From the NCBI RefSeq assembly GCF_022846255.1, contig NZ_AP025682.1: a stretch of DNA of 64,000 bases; one strand, given 5' to 3'. The DNA comes from Escherichia coli. Its GTDB lineage: Bacteria > Pseudomonadota > Gammaproteobacteria > Enterobacterales > Enterobacteriaceae. Below are positions 27,642-35,240 of this stretch, piece by piece. Position numbers and translations under genes: made by a program. The notes beneath the pieces were generated by a model. It made no database searches. It saw only the letters and a program-made list of their open reading frames with translations, and had not been told where the DNA came from. Each line of letters opens with the position of its first letter. Positions within the stretch are counted from its first letter, which is position 1.

Positions 27642-27977
27642 ATGGATAAAGAACGCATCATTCAGGAATTTGTGCCCGGTAAACAGGTCACACTGGCGCA
27701 TCTCATCGCGCATCCCGGCGAGGAACTGGCGAAGAAAATCGGCGTTCCGGATGCGGGCGCAATCGGCATTATGACGCTAACTCCCGGAGAAACGGCGATG
27801 ATCGCCGGTGATTTAGCGTTGAAAGCCGCCGATGTGCATATCGGTTTTCTCGACCGTTTTAGCGGCGCGCTGGTGATTTATGGCTCGGTGGGCGCAGTAG
27901 AAGAAGCGTTATCACAAACCGTCAGTGGTTTAGGACGCTTATTAAATTATACGCTTTGTGAAATGACCAAAAGTTAA
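27642..27977 (+). CDS. eutS: EutS bacterial microcompartment shell protein (111 aa)
   Basis: Start at [15 protein letters not shown] inside ORF-track ORF 27570..27977; first gene of eut operon. Confidence 0.9.
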
Positions 27978-27989
27978 TACGAGGCATTC

Positions 27990-28469
27990 ATGAAACGAAT
28001 TGCGTTTGTGGGTACCGTCGGGGCAGGAAAAACAACGTTATTTAATGCGTTGCAGGGGAATTATACCCTCGCAAGAAAAACACAGGCCGTGGAATTTAAT
28101 GATAATGGCGATATCGATACGCCGGGTGAATATTTTAGCCATCCCCGCTGGTATCACGCCTTAATTACCACGCTACAGGATGTGGACATGCTGATCTATG
28201 TCCACGGCGCGAATGACCCGGAAAGTCGGTTGCCTGCCGGGTTGCTGGATATTGGCGTCAGCAAACGGCAAATCGCCGTCATCAGTAAAACGGACATGCC
28301 AGATGCTGACGTCGCCGCAACGCGAAAGTTATTGCTTGAGACGGGCTTCGAAGAGCCGATTTTCGAGCTAAACAGCCACGACCCGCAAAGCGTGCAGCAA
28401 CTGGTGGATTATCTGGCATCTCTCACCAAACAGGAGGAAGCAGGTGAAAAAACTCATCACAGCGAATGA
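27990..28469 (+). CDS. eutP: EutP, EutP/PduV-family P-loop protein (159 aa)
   Basis: Walker A GTVGAGKTT; overlaps eutQ start. Confidence 0.9.
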   Translation: MKRIAFVGTVGAGKTTLFNALQGNYTLARKTQAVEFNDNGDIDTPGEYFSHPRWYHALITTLQDVDMLIYVHGANDPESRLPAGLLDIGVSKRQIAVISKTDMPDADVAATRKLLLETGFEEPIFELNSHDPQSVQQLVDYLASLTKQEEAGEKTHHSE

Positions 28470-29145
28470 TATTCGTGAAGCACACGCGCGCGGCGAACTG
28501 GCAATGTCCGTGGTTCTGCGCGCCAGCATTATTACCCCGGAAGCTCGTGAAGTGGCTGATCTGTTGGGTTTTACCATCACCGAATGTGATGAATCGATCC
28601 CGGTAACGGCGTCTGTTCCCGCCAGCGCATCAGCCGATAAAACCGAAAGCCAGCGCATCCGTGAAACCATTATCGCCCAACTGCCGGAAGGTCAGTTTAC
28701 CGAAAGCCTGGTCGCGCAGCTGATGGAAAAAGTGATGAAGGAAAAACAGTCGCTGGAACAGGGTGCACTGCAGCCGAGCTTTAAATCGGTGACCGGCAAA
28801 GGCGGCATCAAAGTTATTGATGGCAGCAGCGTCAAGTTTGGTCGTTTCGACGGCGCACAGCCGCACTGTGTAGGCTTGACTGATCTCGTGACCGGAGACG
28901 ACGGCAGCAGTATGGCCGCTGGTTTCATGCAGTGGGAGAACGCATTCTTCCCGTGGACTCTGAACTACGACGAAATCGACATGGTGCTGGAAGGGGAGCT
29001 GCATGTTCGCCACGAAGGCGAAACTATGATCGCCAAAGCGGGCGATGTGATGTTTATCCCGAAAGGCTCCAGCATCGAATTTGGTACGACATCCAGCGTG
29101 AAATTTCTGTATGTCGCCTGGCCGGCTAACTGGCAATCCCTATGA
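28444..29145 (+). CDS. eutQ: EutQ cupin-fold microcompartment-associated protein (233 aa)
   Basis: ORF track; position and length match EutQ. Confidence 0.9.
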   Translation: MKKLITANDIREAHARGELAMSVVLRASIITPEAREVADLLGFTITECDESIPVTASVPASASADKTESQRIRETIIAQLPEGQFTESLVAQLMEKVMKEKQSLEQGALQPSFKSVTGKGGIKVIDGSSVKFGRFDGAQPHCVGLTDLVTGDDGSSMAAGFMQWENAFFPWTLNYDEIDMVLEGELHVRHEGETMIAKAGDVMFIPKGSSIEFGTTSSVKFLYVAWPANWQSL

Positions 29146-29945
29146 AAGATTTCATCACCGAAGCATGGCTAAGAGCGAACCATACGCTCAGCGAAGGCGC
29201 AGAGATCCATCTCCCTGCGGACAGTCGCCTGACGCCCTCTGCCCGGGAGTTACTGGAAAGCCGCCATCTGCGCATCAAGTTTATTGACGAGCAGGGCCGC
29301 CTGTTTGTTGACGATGAACAGCAGCAGCCGCAGCCCGTTCACGGGCTGACCAGTAGCGATGAACATCCGCAGGCGTGCTGCGAACTGTGCCGCCAGCCGG
29401 TGGCAAAAAAGCCGGATACGCTGACTCACCTGTCGGCGGAAAAAATAGTTGCCAAAAGCGATCCGCGCCTGGCTTTTCGCGCTGTTCTCGACAGCACCAT
29501 TGCGCTGGCAGTGTGGCTGCAAATTGAACTGGCGGAACCGTGGCAGCCGTGGCTGGCGGATATCCGTTCGCGTCTTGGCAACATTATGCGCGCTGATGCG
29601 CTGGGGGAACCGCTGGCCTGCCAGGCGATTGTCGGGCTTTCTGACGAAGATCTGCATCGGCTTTCTCATCAACCGCTGCGCTATCTTGGTCACGATCATC
29701 TGGTGCCGGAAGCCAGCCACGGACGCGATGCGGCGTTGCTCAATCTGCTACGCACCAAAGTGCGGGAAACCGAAACCGTAGCAGCGCAGGTATTTATCAC
29801 CCGCAGCTTTGAAGTATTACGCCCGGACATCTTGCAGGCGCTGAACCGCCTTTCCAGCACGGTTTACGTGATGATGATCCTGAGCGTAGCGAAACAACCG
29901 CTAACGGTGAAGCAGATCCAACAACGACTGGGGGAAACGCAATGA
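29142..29945 (+). CDS. eutT: EutT corrinoid adenosyltransferase (267 aa)
   Basis: ORF track; 4-bp overlap with eutQ stop. Confidence 0.9.
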
Positions 29946-30958
29946 TTATTGAACGTTGTCGTGAACTGGCGTTGCGAGCGCCCGCCAGAGTAGTTTTTCC
30001 GGATGCGTTAGATCAACGTGTGCTGAAAGCTGCGCAATATTTACATCAACAAGGTCTGGCAACGCCCATTCTGGTCGCCAATCCGTTTGAACTTCGTCAG
30101 TTTGCGCTCAGTCACGGCGTGGCGATGGACGGGCTACAGGTGATAGATCCGCATGGCAACCTCGCAATGCGGGAAGAATTTGCTCATCGCTGGCTGGCCC
30201 GCGCGGGCGAAAAAACGCCGCCGGATGCGCTGGAAAAACTTACCGATCCGCTGATGTTCGCCGCCGCAATGGTCAGCGCCGGTAAAGCGGATGTCTGTAT
30301 CGCGGGCAACCTCTCTTCCACGGCGAATGTGCTGCGTGCCGGATTACGCATTATCGGCTTGCAGCCAGGCTGTAAAACGCTCTCATCCATTTTCCTGATG
30401 CTGCCACAGTACAGCGGTCCGGCGTTGGGTTTTGCCGATTGCAGCGTGGTGCCACAGCCGACGGCGGCACAACTGGCGGATATCGCGCTTGCCAGCGCCG
30501 AAACCTGGCGCGCCATCACCGGAGAAGAACCGCGCGTGGCGATGCTGTCGTTTTCCAGCAACGGTAGTGCCCGTCACCCCTGCGTTGCCAACGTCCAGCA
30601 GGCGACAGAAATCGTCCGTGAGCGCGCACCAAAGCTGGTTGTCGATGGCGAGTTGCAGTTTGACGCCGCCTTCGTGCCGGAAGTGGCGGCGCAAAAAGCG
30701 CCTGCCAGCCCGTTACAGGGCAAAGCCAATGTGATGGTTTTTCCGTCGCTGGAGGCAGGAAATATTGGCTACAAAATCGCACAACGACTTGGCGGATATC
30801 GTGCCGTCGGGCCATTGATACAAGGACTTGCCGCGCCGATGCACGATCTCTCTCGTGGTTGTAGCGTGCAGGAAATTATCGAACTGGCGCTGGTGGCAGC
30901 TGTGCCGCGTCAGACAGAAGTGAACCGCGAAAGCAGTTTACAAACACTGGTTGAATGA
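29942..30958 (+). CDS. eutD: EutD phosphotransacetylase (338 aa)
   Basis: ORF track; Pta-family protein, 4-bp overlap with eutT. Confidence 0.92.
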
Positions 30959-30996
30959 ACGGTCCCGTTCTGGACCCTGATAAAGAGGAAAGCACA

Positions 30997-31290
30997 ATGG
31001 AAGCATTAGGAATGATCGAAACCCGGGGCCTGGTTGCACTGATTGAGGCTTCTGACGCGATGGTTAAAGCTGCGCGCGTCAAGCTGGTTGGTGTTAAGCA
31101 GATTGGCGGCGGCCTGTGTACTGCCATGGTTCGTGGTGATGTTGCAGCCTGTAAAGCCGCGACCGATGCCGGTGCCGCAGCGGCACAGCGTATCGGCGAG
31201 CTGGTATCTGTACACGTTATCCCGCGTCCGCACGGCGACCTGGAAGAAGTCTTCCCGATCGGCCTGAAAGGCGATAGCAGCAACCTGTAA
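30997..31290 (+). CDS. eutM: EutM BMC-H major shell protein (97 aa)
   Basis: [31 protein letters not shown]-domain N-terminus; GAGGAAAG Shine-Dalgarno upstream. Confidence 0.92.
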
Positions 31291-31396
31291 TCACCCTGTG
31301 TGACGTCGATTCGGGCGTCACGCTCTCTCCTTTTTCATTTTACCTTCTGCGGAGGGTAGGGGGAGCTTTTACCTGAAATACGCCACGGAGGCGGGT

Positions 31397-31684
31397 ATGA
31401 AACTGGCAGTCGTCACTGGACAAATTGTTTGTACCGTACGCCATCACGGACTGGCGCATGACAAATTGCTGATGGTGGAAATGATTGATCCACAAGGTAA
31501 TCCTGACGGGCAATGCGCCGTCGCCATCGACAATATTGGCGCGGGAACCGGGGAGTGGGTGTTACTGGTGAGTGGCAGTTCCGCCCGCCAGGCGCATAAA
31601 AGCGAAACGTCACCGGTCGATCTGTGCGTGATTGGCATTGTCGATGAGGTGGTGTCTGGCGGTCAGGTCATTTTCCACAAATAA
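31397..31684 (+). CDS. eutN: EutN microcompartment vertex protein (95 aa)
   Basis: ORF track; EutN/CcmL-type small protein. Confidence 0.9.
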   Translation: MKLAVVTGQIVCTVRHHGLAHDKLLMVEMIDPQGNPDGQCAVAIDNIGAGTGEWVLLVSGSSARQAHKSETSPVDLCVIGIVDEVVSGGQVIFHK

Positions 31685-31695
31685 GGCAGAACATC

Positions 31696-33099
31696 ATGAA
31701 TCAACAGGATATTGAACAGGTGGTGAAAGCGGTACTGCTGAAAATGCAAAGCAGTGACACGCCGCCCGCCGCCGTTCATGAGATGGGCGTTTTCGCGTCC
31801 CTGGATGACGCCGTTGCGGCAGCCAAAGTCGCCCAGCAAGGGTTAAAAAGCGTGGCAATGCGCCAGTTAGCCATTGCTGCCATTCGTGAGGCAGGCGAAA
31901 AACACGCCAGAGATTTAGCGGAACTTGCCGTCAGTGAAACCGGCATGGGGCGCGTTGAAGATAAATTTGCCAAAAACGTCGCTCAGGCGCGCGGCACACC
32001 AGGCGTTGAGTGCCTCTCACCACAGGTGCTGACCGGTGACAACGGCCTGACCCTGATTGAAAACGCGCCCTGGGGCGTGGTGGCTTCGGTAACTCCGTCC
32101 ACCAACCCGGCGGCAACCGTAATTAATAACGCCATCAGCCTGATTGCCGCGGGCAACAGCGTCATTTTTGCCCCGCATCCGGCGGCGAAAAAAGTCTCCC
32201 AGCGGGCGATTACGCTGCTCAACCAGGCGATTGTTGCCGCAGGCGGGCCGGAAAACTTACTGGTTACTGTGGCCAATCCGGATATCGAAACCGCGCAACG
32301 TTTGTTCAAGTTCCCGGGTATCGGCCTGCTGGTGGTGACCGGCGGCGAAGCGGTAGTGGAAGCGGCGCGTAAACACACCAATAAACGTCTGATTGCCGCA
32401 GGCGCTGGCAACCCGCCGGTAGTTGTGGATGAAACCGCTGACCTCGCCCGTGCTGCTCAGTCCATCGTCAAAGGCGCGTCTTTCGATAACAACATCATTT
32501 GTGCCGACGAAAAGGTACTGATTGTTGTTGATAGCGTAGCCGATGAACTGATGCGTCTGATGGAAGGCCAGCATGCGGTGAAACTGACCGCAGAGCAGGC
32601 GCAGCAACTGCAATCGGTGTTGCTGAAAAATATCGACGAGTGCGGAAAAGGCACCGTCAGCCGTGACTGGGTTGGTCGCGATGCGGCGAAAATCGCGGCG
32701 GCAATCGGCCTTAAAGTTCCGGAACAAACGCGACTGCTGTTTGTAGAAACCTCCGCAGAACATCCGTTTGCTGTGACTGAACTGATGATGCCGGTGCTGC
32801 CCGTCGTGCGCGTCGCCAACGTGGCGGATGCCATTGCGCTGGCGGTGAAACTGGAAGGCGGTTGCCACCACACGGCGGCAATGCACTCGCGCAACATCGA
32901 AAACATGAACCAGATGGCGAACGCCATTGATACCAGCATTTTCGTTAAGAACGGACCGTGCATTGCCGGGCTGGGGCTGGGCGGGGAAGGCTGGACCACC
33001 ATGACCATCACCACGCCAACCGGTGAAGGGGTAACCAGCGCGCGGACGTTTGTCCGTCTGCGTCGCTGTGTATTAGTCGATGCGTTTCGCATTGTTTAA
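31696..33099 (+). CDS. eutE: EutE CoA-acylating acetaldehyde dehydrogenase (467 aa)
   Basis: ORF track; aldehyde dehydrogenase family; N-terminal encapsulation-peptide-like helix. Confidence 0.93.
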   Translation: MNQQDIEQVVKAVLLKMQSSDTPPAAVHEMGVFASLDDAVAAAKVAQQGLKSVAMRQLAIAAIREAGEKHARDLAELAVSETGMGRVEDKFAKNVAQARGTPGVECLSPQVLTGDNGLTLIENAPWGVVASVTPSTNPAATVINNAISLIAAGNSVIFAPHPAAKKVSQRAITLLNQAIVAAGGPENLLVTVANPDIETAQRLFKFPGIGLLVVTGGEAVVEAARKHTNKRLIAAGAGNPPVVVDETADLARAAQSIVKGASFDNNIICADEKVLIVVDSVADELMRLMEGQHAVKLTAEQAQQLQSVLLKNIDECGKGTVSRDWVGRDAAKIAAAIGLKVPEQTRLLFVETSAEHPFAVTELMMPVLPVVRVANVADAIALAVKLEGGCHHTAAMHSRNIENMNQMANAIDTSIFVKNGPCIAGLGLGGEGWTTMTITTPTGEGVTSARTFVRLRRCVLVDAFRIV

Positions 33100-33109
33100 G
33101 GAGTAACAG

Positions 33110-33946
33110 ATGGCGCACGACGAACAATGGCTCACCCCACGTCTGCAAACGGCGGCAACGCTGTGTAACCAGACGCCCGCCGCGACGGAATCTCCGCTGT
33201 GGCTGGGGGTGGATCTGGGCACCTGCGATGTGGTGTCGATGATTGTTGACTGCGACGGTCAGCCGGTGGCGGTATGCCTCGACTGGGCCGATGTGGTCCG
33301 CGACGGCATCGTCTGGGATTTCTTCGGTGCGGTCACCATTGTTCGTCGCCATCTCGACACCCTCGAGCAGCAATTCGGTCGCCGTTTTAGCCATGCGGCG
33401 ACCTCTTTTCCTCCAGGCACGGACCCGCGTATTTCCATCAACGTGCTGGAGTCTGCCGGACTGGAAGTGAGCCATGTGCTGGATGAGCCAACCGCAGTTG
33501 CGGATCTGCTGCAACTGGACAACGCCGGTGTAGTGGATATCGGCGGCGGCACTACCGGCATTGCCATCGTGAAAAAAGGCAAAGTGACGTACTCGGCGGA
33601 TGAAGCCACCGGCGGACATCACATCTCTCTGACTCTCGCCGGAAATCGTCGTATTTCGCTGGAAGAGGCAGAGCAGTACAAGCGCGGTCACGGTGAAGAG
33701 ATTTGGCCCGCGGTGAAACCGGTGTACGAAAAAATGGCGGACATTGTCGCCCGGCATATTGAAGGGCAGGGCATTACGGATTTATGGCTGGCGGGCGGCT
33801 CTTGTATGCAACCGGGCGTGGCGGAACTGTTTCGCAAACAATTCCCGGCGTTACAGGTGCATTTACCGCAGCACAGTTTGTTTATGACCCCGCTGGCGAT
33901 CGCCAGTAGCGGGCGAGAGAAAGCGGAGGGGCTATATGCAAAATGA
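33110..33946 (+). CDS. eutJ: EutJ actin/Hsp70-fold chaperone-like protein (278 aa)
   Basis: ORF track; DLGTCD and GGGTTG ATPase-fold motifs. Confidence 0.9.
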   Translation: MAHDEQWLTPRLQTAATLCNQTPAATESPLWLGVDLGTCDVVSMIVDCDGQPVAVCLDWADVVRDGIVWDFFGAVTIVRRHLDTLEQQFGRRFSHAATSFPPGTDPRISINVLESAGLEVSHVLDEPTAVADLLQLDNAGVVDIGGGTTGIAIVKKGKVTYSADEATGGHHISLTLAGNRRISLEEAEQYKRGHGEEIWPAVKPVYEKMADIVARHIEGQGITDLWLAGGSCMQPGVAELFRKQFPALQVHLPQHSLFMTPLAIASSGREKAEGLYAK

Positions 33947-35123
33947 ATTGCAGACCGCGCTCTTTCAGGCGTTCGATACCCTGAATCTGCAACGGGTAAA
34001 AACATTTAGCGTTCCACCGGTGACGCTTTGCGGTCCGGGCGCGGTGAGCAGTTGTGGGCAGCAAGCGCAAACGCGTGGGCTGAAACATCTGTTCGTGATG
34101 GCAGACAGCTTTTTGCATCAGACCGGGATGACCGCCGGGCTGACGCGTAGCCTGGCCGTTAAAGGTATCGCCATGACGCTCTGGCCATGTCCGGTGGGCG
34201 AACCATGCATCACCGACGTGTGTGCAGCCGTGGCGCAGTTGCGTGAATCAGGTTGTGACGGGGTGATCGCGTTTGGCGGCGGCTCGGTGCTGGATGCGGC
34301 GAAAGCCGTGGCGTTGCTGGTGACGAACCCGGATAGCACGCTGGCAGAAATGTCAGAAACCAGCGTTCTGCAACCGCGCCTGCCGTTGATTGCCATTCCA
34401 ACGACCGCCGGAACCGGCTCTGAAACGACTAACGTGACGGTGATTATCGATGCGGTAAGCGGGCGCAAACAGGTGTTAGCCCATGCCTCGCTGATGCCGG
34501 ATGTGGCGATCCTCGACGCCGCATTGACCGAAGGTGTGCCGTCGCATGTCACGGCGATGACTGGCATTGATGCGTTAACCCATGCCATTGAAGCGTACAG
34601 CGCGCTGAACGCCACACCGTTTACCGACAGTCTGGCGATTGGTGCCATTGCGATGATTGGCAAATCGCTGCCGAAAGCGGTGGGCTACGGTCATGACCTT
34701 GCCGCGCGCGAGAGCATGTTGCTGGCTTCATGTATGGCGGGAATGGCGTTTTCCAGTGCCGGACTTGGGTTGTGCCACGCGATGGCGCATCAGCCAGGGG
34801 CGGCGCTGCATATTCCGCACGGTCTGGCGAACGCCATGTTGTTGCCAACGGTGATGGAATTTAACCGGATGGTTTGTCGTGATCGGTTTAGTCAGATTGG
34901 TCGGGCGCTGCGAACTAAAAAATCCGACGATCGTGACGCTATTAACGCGGTAAGTGAGCTGATTGCGGAAGTCGGGATTGGTAAACGACTGGGCGATGTT
35001 GGTGCGACATCTGCGCATTACGGTGCATGGGCGCAGGCCGCGCTGGAAGATATTTGTCTGCGCAGTAACCCGCGTACCGCCAGCCTGGAGCAGATTATTG
35101 GTCTGTATGCTGCGGCGCTATAA
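33936..35123 (+). CDS. eutG: EutG iron-containing alcohol dehydrogenase (395 aa)
   Basis: ORF track; Fe-ADH family; overlaps eutJ by 11 bp. Confidence 0.92.
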   Translation: MQNELQTALFQAFDTLNLQRVKTFSVPPVTLCGPGAVSSCGQQAQTRGLKHLFVMADSFLHQTGMTAGLTRSLAVKGIAMTLWPCPVGEPCITDVCAAVAQLRESGCDGVIAFGGGSVLDAAKAVALLVTNPDSTLAEMSETSVLQPRLPLIAIPTTAGTGSETTNVTVIIDAVSGRKQVLAHASLMPDVAILDAALTEGVPSHVTAMTGIDALTHAIEAYSALNATPFTDSLAIGAIAMIGKSLPKAVGYGHDLAARESMLLASCMAGMAFSSAGLGLCHAMAHQPGAALHIPHGLANAMLLPTVMEFNRMVCRDRFSQIGRALRTKKSDDRDAINAVSELIAEVGIGKRLGDVGATSAHYGAWAQAALEDICLRSNPRTASLEQIIGLYAAAL

Positions 35124-35135
35124 AAGTGTACGGAC

Positions 35136-35240
35136 AGTCCCCTCGCCCCTTTGGGGAGAGGGTTAGGGTGAGGGGAACAGAGTCGCGCCGGTGCAAACAA
35201 TTACCCTCACCCCGGCCCCTCGGCTTCCAGAGTGAGGGAA
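35136..35240. repeat. GC-rich imperfect palindromic repeat in the eutG-eutH spacer
   Basis: cccctcgcccctttggggagaggg and gggtgagggg...ccctcacccc inverted repeats; family not assigned with confidence. Confidence 0.55.

Follow-up and report, generated by a model that had tools for sequence, protein, structure and literature searches.

The 106-nt gap between eutM and eutN in the eut operon of Escherichia coli is, as judged from sequence comparison and predicted folds, a strongly conserved and structured two-hairpin RNA module, and it separates the gene of the most abundant shell protein, EutM, from that of the rarest, EutN (relative levels of 96 and 1), as the initial annotation had supposed. 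The gap is most likely not a canonical terminator, with polymerases mostly reading through it. Tentatively, we favour the explanation that it acts as an intercistronic 3' stabiliser of the malE-malF type, combined with a translational uncoupler and a structured start region of eutN.

Genomic setting of the eutM-eutN gap

The window, which is the whole stretch of E. coli DNA analysed here (64,000 nt), contains an intact eut operon from eutS to eutR (27642-42480). Within the operon only two gaps are long, namely eutM-eutN (106 nt) and eutG-eutH (169 nt), while the remaining gaps are of 45 nt or less. The genes eutA and eutB adjoin with an 11-nt gap (window 36516-37931). In K-12 the operon is split by a prophage between eutA and eutB, and the adjacency of the two genes thus indicates that the source strain has no K-12-type prophage and that the window is not from K-12. 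The two genes flanking the gap are as follows.

30997..31290, + strand: eutM coding sequence, 97 aa, major hexameric shell protein (from the list of open reading frames; Pfam BMC domain, E=2e-29), with the stop codon TAA at 31288-31290
31397..31684, + strand: eutN coding sequence, 95 aa, pentameric vertex protein (Pfam EutN_CcmL, E=2e-30)

The spacer of 106 nt was correctly placed in the initial annotation, since the TAA ends at 31290 and eutN begins at 31397. Of 5426 complete E. coli genomes, 5407 carry the gap, nearly all of them at a single place; eutM is annotated in 5407 genomes, and no annotated feature lies in the gap across those genomes, the MG1655 record included. No Rfam 15 covariance model matches the gap at E values up to 10 (30000-33000 searched), and the whole window has zero matches at the gathering score. 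The E. coli gap has no REP core and does not belong to the REP/BIME elements; REP-like cores are present elsewhere in the window. A repeat family was rejected, the gap being single-copy per E. coli genome and unannotated. By inspection, no small open reading frame in the gap is conserved on either strand. Stop-codon read-through giving an EutM-EutN fusion in E. coli, to which a fused S. Typhi reading frame had drawn attention, was also rejected, as eutN is in another frame, a second in-frame stop is present, and the gap lengths of different species span all three frames.

A structured gap as a general design of microcompartment operons was considered and rejected, as the pdu operons of both Salmonella and E. 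albertii show a 4-nt overlap of pduA with pduB (loci L055, 2282-2285, and L057, 2279-2282); a long structured gap after the major hexamer gene is thus specific to eut.

Structure and conservation of the gap

The gap contains the following elements, in which the pairings are predicted.

31298..31323, + strand: SL1, the first hairpin, 10-bp stem GUGUGACGUC/GGCGUCACGC with the loop GAUUCG, -16.2 kcal/mol
31300-31307 with 31314-31321: core of SL1, 8 bp
31323..31341, + strand: pyrimidine tract CUCUCUCCUUUUUCAUUUU, the U-rich tract of the initial annotation
31325-31331, + strand: 5' strand of helix 2, CUCUCCU, predicted in the MFE and consensus folds
31341..31358, + strand: SL2, UACCUUC-UGCG-GAGGGUA, predicted in the MFE and consensus folds and stacked on helix 2
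31359..31365, + strand: 3' strand of helix 2, the G tract GGGGGAG, which pairs with 31325-31331 at the base of SL2
31365-31369, + strand: GC/UUU, a match to the RNase E motif RN/WUU (cut at the slash) and a candidate site, G31365 being the last base of helix 2
31366..31380, + strand: linker CUUUUACCUGAAAUA, predicted to be single-stranded
31370-31377, + strand: UA(C/U)CUGAA, near-invariant columns, predicted to be unpaired in E. coli
31381..31393, + strand: small hairpin CGCC-ACGGA-GGCG of the predicted fold, which holds the eutN Shine-Dalgarno sequence GGAGG (31387-31391)

The gtgacg/cgtcac hairpin which had been noticed after the eutM stop is present, with these arms at 31300-31305 and 31316-31321, and its true stem comprises 10 bp rather than 6. 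SL1 begins 7 nt past the eutM stop in E. coli and 5-9 nt past it in every species having SL1, six of its 10 bp are G-C pairs, and its loop is of 6 nt. A 30-nt window of the stability of SL1 occurs in only 9 of 1000 dinucleotide shuffles of the gap. The core, GUGACGYC/GRCGUCAC, is unchanged in 21 sequences from Escherichia, Citrobacter, Klebsiella spallanzanii, Buttiauxella and Entomohabitans save for one covarying pair (C-G, U.G or U-A), so that 14 of its 16 positions are invariant across genera; the stem is likewise unchanged in all six E. coli variant gaps compared, and Yokenella has an extra change from G-C to A-U. In the same taxa plus Yokenella, only 3-6% of the four-fold degenerate sites of eutM and eutN are invariant, and E. 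coli and Buttiauxella are identical at a fraction of about 0.5-0.6 of their third positions. SL1 is thus under strong selection where it is present, as its core is invariant while synonymous sites are almost fully randomised. This conservation, which rules out a neutral sequence, is the strongest evidence that SL1 is not a chance hairpin.

The invariant stem exceeds what a stabiliser needs, as an exonuclease barrier requires stability and not a fixed sequence. It would be accounted for if SL1 were a sequence-specific site for a trans-acting factor, such as an RNA-binding protein, an sRNA or a DNA-binding protein, and such a site would also suit the free covariation of SL2 within the same gap (14 of 16 core stem positions of SL1 being invariant, with one varying pair) and the near-invariant UA(C/U)CUGAA, which is otherwise unexplained as well. 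No candidate factor is known, however, and SL1 is swapped for REP elements in whole lineages. The motif is found once within the window, and its occurrences in metagenomes are unrelated to eut: a scan for the SL1 motif with a longer loop gave more than 120 matches, only in GC-rich environmental contigs and none near eutM or eutN, which look like chance matches and are uninformative. A site for a dimeric DNA-binding protein is disfavoured because the spacing of the arms, i.e. the length of the SL1 loop, varies widely among species, and CRP or MetJ-like DNA sites were rejected on inspection for their unfit spacing or sequence. Taken together, a trans-factor site is highly improbable. With equally little probability, SL1 and perhaps UA(C/U)CUGAA would be read by a dedicated factor that couples the decay, translation or placement of the shell message to microcompartment assembly, and enterobacterial eut operons would then have a dedicated post-transcriptional regulator of shell stoichiometry.

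The pyrimidines that had been described as a U-rich tract after the hairpin are present as ctctctcctttttcatttt at 31323-31341, but this tract is really C/U-rich, its first 8 nt (UCUCUCCU) holding four C. Part of it is also a predicted helix strand, as both the MFE and the consensus folds pair it with the G tract. The sequence of the G tract is kept in Escherichia and Citrobacter, and helix 2 owes most of its covariation to the sequences from Buttiauxella and Entomohabitans, which are aligned with less certainty and fold differently when taken singly. In SL2, 4 of the 6 pairs show compensatory changes, e.g. from A-U to G-C, or from U.G to C-G to G-C. Four helices are common to the MFE fold and the consensus of 21 gaps, namely SL1, helix 2, SL2 and a weak helix near the eutN start, and the fold of the whole gap has a z-score of -3.17. 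On the alignment, the proposed structure is paired in 96.7% of the cells, with compensatory change in 10 pairs; when the pairing partner was slid by 1-3 columns, at most 2 compensatory pairs were obtained, and none of 500 shuffles reached the observed values.

Downstream of SL2, UA(C/U)CUGAA is near-invariant in all gaps with SL1, even amid the diverged sequences of Buttiauxella and Entomohabitans, and in Entomohabitans it is able to pair with the Shine-Dalgarno region of eutN. The segment CACGGAGGCGGGU, which contains the eutN ribosome-binding site, is retained with small variations in nearly all enterobacterial lineages, including those with REP-filled gaps.

Two side observations concern this part of the gap. 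In E. coli strain 90-1, an IS911-family element (L053, about 1580-2830) is inserted right after SL2 at CTTT/TACC, corresponding to about window 31369/31370, and parts eutM, SL1 and SL2 from the ribosome-binding region of eutN in a natural isolate. In the Citrobacter freundii group, the last 22 nt of the gap in several loci contain a 6-codon upstream open reading frame (ATG CCA CGG AGG CGC GTA TGA), the stop codon of which overlaps the start codon of eutN; in E. coli its ATG reads ACG, and the reading frame is absent there.

Replacement of SL1 by REP elements in related genera

A scan with one genome per species gave 48 loci, in 42 of which the gap could be measured through an upstream eutM. 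In 41 loci, which extend from Escherichia to Pseudomonas and Rhodocyclaceae, eutM lies directly before eutN, and every one of these gaps is long (52-211 nt). Every enterobacterial gap opens with stable hairpins, and two types are found.

Type A, with SL1, a pyrimidine stretch and a second structure: Escherichia, the Citrobacter freundii group, Klebsiella spallanzanii, Buttiauxella, Entomohabitans and Yokenella
Type B, filled with REP elements: Salmonella, other Klebsiella, C. koseri, C. amalonaticus, C. sedlakii, Pseudocitrobacter and Pluralibacter

The REP core GCCGGATAAG occurs in 16 fetched loci, and in the 15 loci from species other than E. coli its copies are in or right at the eutM-eutN gap. 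The comparison with the Salmonella spacer that had been suggested therefore yields no counterpart of SL1, as the Salmonella gap is unrelated and built of REP elements; in the two Salmonella loci inspected it is a REP sequence of 111-112 nt. Whole lineages thus have REP hairpins in place of SL1. That REP elements occupy this position in Salmonella, most Klebsiella and several Citrobacter would fit a shared role, and it suits a stabiliser better than a terminator, but it is no more than consistent with such a role, as REPs may simply insert wherever they are tolerated.

A possible remnant of the 5' arm of SL1 is seen in C. amalonaticus and C. koseri (ACGTCGGATCG versus ACGTCGATTCG), where the initial 25 nt of the gap (CTACGTCGGATCG and CTACGTCTGATCG) are similar to TGACGTCGATTCG, the 5' arm with the loop of SL1 in E. 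coli. In these two species this suggests that a REP insertion may have displaced the 3' part of an ancestral SL1.

Gene models at this locus are variable in Salmonella, as RefSeq records use six of them for eutM-eutN, and in S. Typhi CT18 and Ty2 the two genes are annotated as one fused open reading frame of 690 bp (PMC3548604).

Intrinsic termination

It had been proposed that SL1 and the pyrimidine tract form a partial intrinsic terminator, which would release some polymerases and leave fewer transcripts into eutN. The site fits a loose hairpin-plus-T pattern and is the top-ranking terminator-like site of an 18-kb scan, which overall gave 23 sites against 21.9 in shuffles, i.e. no excess. 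Its stem (10 bp, -16.2 kcal/mol) and loop agree with the G+C-rich stem of 5-14 bp and the loop of 3-8 nt expected of a terminator. The U tract does not, as a near-uninterrupted run of 7-9 nt is expected, whereas UCUCUCCU has 4 U in 8 nt and no adjacent U before position 8, and its four C would give four rC:dG pairs and thus a strong RNA:DNA hybrid at the expected release point.

The d'Aubenton-Carafa-type tail score, a crude measure for which some real mapped 3' ends score lower, is 2.0 in E. coli and falls below the default tail threshold of TransTermHP (2.5). The corresponding values are 0.70 in the C. freundii group, where the tail begins with CC, 0.08 in Yokenella, where it is absent, 1.4 in Entomohabitans and 1.9-3.6 in Buttiauxella, which has the better tails (e.g. 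UUUCUUUAAC, score 3.6); REP-type gaps lack the U tract and score 1.2 or less. Apart from the Yokenella pair given above, SL1 is unchanged in both the C. freundii group and Yokenella, so that hairpin and U tract are not conserved jointly, and as tail scores range from 0.08 to 3.6 while SL1 is invariant, its conserved function does not rely on the U tract. The full d'Aubenton-Carafa-type score of SL1 is -20, which is to be read qualitatively, since the calibration set gave negative values for some real terminators as well.

No sense-strand 3' end lies in the gap in MG1655 Term-seq data from LB and M63 glucose, under which the eut operon is assumed to be uninduced. Many of 18 sampled E. coli Term-seq "primary" 3' ends lie 2-7 nt past stable hairpins with equal or worse tails, REPs included, which shows that stable hairpins alone mark RNA 3' ends in vivo and that termination and trimming are not separable in this way. 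The same data contain a low-count (946 reads) antisense RNA 3' end inside eutM, at about 31230 on the minus strand (MG1655 2572217, listed on the + strand); the upstream sequence given for it matches 31230-31280 in reverse complement, and the start of the antisense RNA must thus lie on the opposite strand within the eutM-eutN gap or beyond it.

RNA and protein levels

Published RNA-seq of strain LF82, a single study with low counts, incomplete induction and a strain other than the one analysed here, gives 108, 55, 5 and 14 RPKM for eutD, eutM, eutN and eutE in minimal medium, and 13, 35, 106 and 61 for the later genes eutJ, eutG, eutH and eutB; with bile salts, the respective values are 357, 177, 62 and 149, and 147, 168, 514 and 358 (PMC6379400). 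In proteomics of W3110 grown on ethanolamine and B12, the relative levels are 100 for EutQ, 96 for EutM, 39 for EutL, 37 for EutB, 27 for EutE, 24 for EutC, 11 for EutS, 10 for EutD, 8 for EutK and 1 for EutN (PMC11334477).

The expectation that eutM RNA exceeds eutN RNA is borne out in the one LF82 data set (55 versus 5 and 177 versus 62 RPKM), and in the uninduced state eutD and eutM (108 and 55 RPKM) are far above eutN, eutE and eutJ (5, 14 and 13), as a partial terminator would have it. In the induced state, however, eutE, eutH and eutB reach 149, 514 and 358 RPKM against 177 for eutM, and the proteins encoded downstream are abundant. The step-down in RNA is a dip confined to eutN, with eutE at 84% of eutM in bile salts and later genes above eutM, and the published values show no lasting downstream drop in RNA and protein. 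As a terminator would lower all downstream genes while those from eutE onward recover, termination is disfavoured, and the dip fits a locally unstable eutN segment better. With a tail that holds C, a tract that varies between species and pairs in part with downstream sequence, and expression that recovers after eutN, we regard a partial intrinsic terminator as unlikely, and termination as a minor contributor at most, with Buttiauxella providing the best case for it. The terminator reading is therefore partly supported, as the differential expression it was meant to explain is right and its mechanism is probably wrong.

An internal promoter in the gap was rejected, as no sigma-70-like site is found and eutN RNA is the lowest in the operon. 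The other long gap, eutG-eutH (35124-35292; 169 nt), which in strain SK1144 has an additional REP core and measures 216 nt, contains G/C-rich inverted repeats (CCCCUCGCCCCUUUGGGGAGAGGG; GGGUGAGGGG...CCCUCACCCC). Published RPKM values rise about 3-fold from eutG to eutH (168 to 514), and either a promoter inside this gap or a stabilising structure is suggested by this rise.

The roughly 100-fold difference between EutM and EutN can be divided into about 3-fold at the RNA level and about 34-fold in protein per RNA (0.54 for eutM and 0.016 for eutN), a crude division in which two strains, conditions and studies are combined. Most of the EutN deficit is not transcriptional, as EutE, which is encoded downstream, is 27-fold higher. 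The very low EutN iBAQ may be partly technical, as EutN gives few usable tryptic peptides on inspection of its sequence.

Translation of eutN

The same figures, a 27-fold excess of EutE from a downstream gene and the crude protein-per-RNA values, would also be expected if the gap were a purely translational device without any effect at the RNA level, which blocks re-initiation after eutM and, by way of the Shine-Dalgarno hairpin and of pairing at the start codon, sets a low, independent initiation at eutN. The opening energy of the initiation region is 13.4 kcal/mol for eutN versus 6.9 for eutM and 8.5 for eutE, and among the 12 quantified Eut proteins opening energy is correlated with protein level across the operon (Spearman rho -0.67, p 0.017), with eutN among the most closed; the retention of the ribosome-binding segment even in REP-type gaps points in the same direction. 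However, the eutN Shine-Dalgarno sequence is strong (GGAGG, -9.5 kcal/mol, 5-nt spacing), the start region does not fold with significantly greater stability than its shuffles (z -0.55), and eutN RNA does dip. A device of this kind also gives no account of the hairpin right after the eutM stop in all lineages, nor of the invariance of SL1, and is decidedly unlikely as the whole explanation.

Proposed role of the gap

The tentatively favoured stabiliser combines effects on RNA and on translation. RNA polymerase would mostly transcribe through the gap, and the polycistronic RNA would be cut by an endonuclease further downstream, either in the linker that follows SL2 or within eutN, which is thinly translated. 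The match GC/UUU right after the G tract is a candidate cut site, the RNase E motif being used as given in PMC5927463. Exonucleases running back from 3' to 5' would stall at SL2 and then at SL1, and the upstream segment ending with eutM would in consequence outlive the eutN segment. At the same time, the long structured gap would keep ribosomes that terminate on eutM from re-initiating at eutN, and the eutN start, with its Shine-Dalgarno sequence in the small hairpin, would hold EutN synthesis low.

Several observations agree with this proposal. A stable hairpin is located at the 3' boundary of the more abundant cistron in an operon that is read through, and structure at this place is kept among relatives, as the proposed pairing in type A gaps or as REP hairpins in other genera. 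Under this proposal the less stable neighbour would be translated less; the eutN start is costlier to open, and EutN per RNA is about 34-fold below EutM in values that mix two strains and studies. What is observed is the structure with its conservation, the REPs that stand in its place and the RNA and protein levels from the literature, whereas the stalling of exonucleases, the site of cleavage and the extent to which stoichiometry is affected are inferred. Liang, Rudd and Deutscher reportedly found in 2015 that hairpins within about 15 nt of a stop codon lower the translation of the upstream gene, and by this effect a hairpin near the eutM stop would work against high EutM.

Shells need about 100 times more of the hexamer EutM than of the vertex pentamer EutN, although the two genes adjoin in one operon, and wrong EutM:EutN ratios lead to malformed compartments. 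A cis element at the eutM/eutN boundary would partly explain how this ratio is set. For heterologous expression of Eut shells, such an element would be a concrete part to keep, tune or swap, e.g. for the Salmonella REP sequence. The gap is also a warning that a hairpin followed by pyrimidines within an operon should not be called a terminator by default.

Comparison with known systems

The eutM-eutN element is undescribed, while operon fine-tuning of this type is already known. The intercistronic stabiliser of malE-malF, attributed to Newbury et al. (1987), reportedly has a REP element as its barrier. Similarly to malE-malF and the operons with differential decay, the eutM gap has a stable hairpin right after a cistron which is needed in excess, the eut operon is read through, a longer-lived upstream segment is expected, and REPs are found in the same gap of related genera. 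Unlike the malE-malF barrier, the E. coli eut element is not a REP, but a single-copy element with its own invariant sequence, and its stabilising role is a proposed one; the segment to be stabilised would be internal (...eutD-eutM) and not the 5'-most gene alone. In E. coli, protection by 3' hairpins that border the more abundant cistron is documented: differential decay was found in about 12% of the operons, where a stable hairpin usually marks the boundary and the unstable neighbour carries fewer ribosomes (Dar and Sorek 2018, PMC5927463).

With intrinsic terminators and attenuators, the gap shares a G+C-rich, short-loop hairpin followed by pyrimidines just past the stop codon, but its U tract is interrupted by C, unconserved and partly paired with the G tract in the predicted fold, and the downstream genes are equally expressed. 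The REP/BIME gaps of related genera resemble it in position, orientation and the ribosome-binding segment of eutN, their stable hairpins starting 0-25 nt past the eutM stop, whereas REPs share no sequence with SL1 or SL2 and belong to a multi-copy genomic family. The puf operon of Rhodobacter capsulatus (pufBALMX in PMC5927463) is unrelated in sequence and organism, and the role of its hairpins in setting the ratio is experimental, while that of the eut gap is proposed from the evidence above; in both operons, intercistronic hairpins are found among genes for structural proteins that are required in fixed and unequal stoichiometry.
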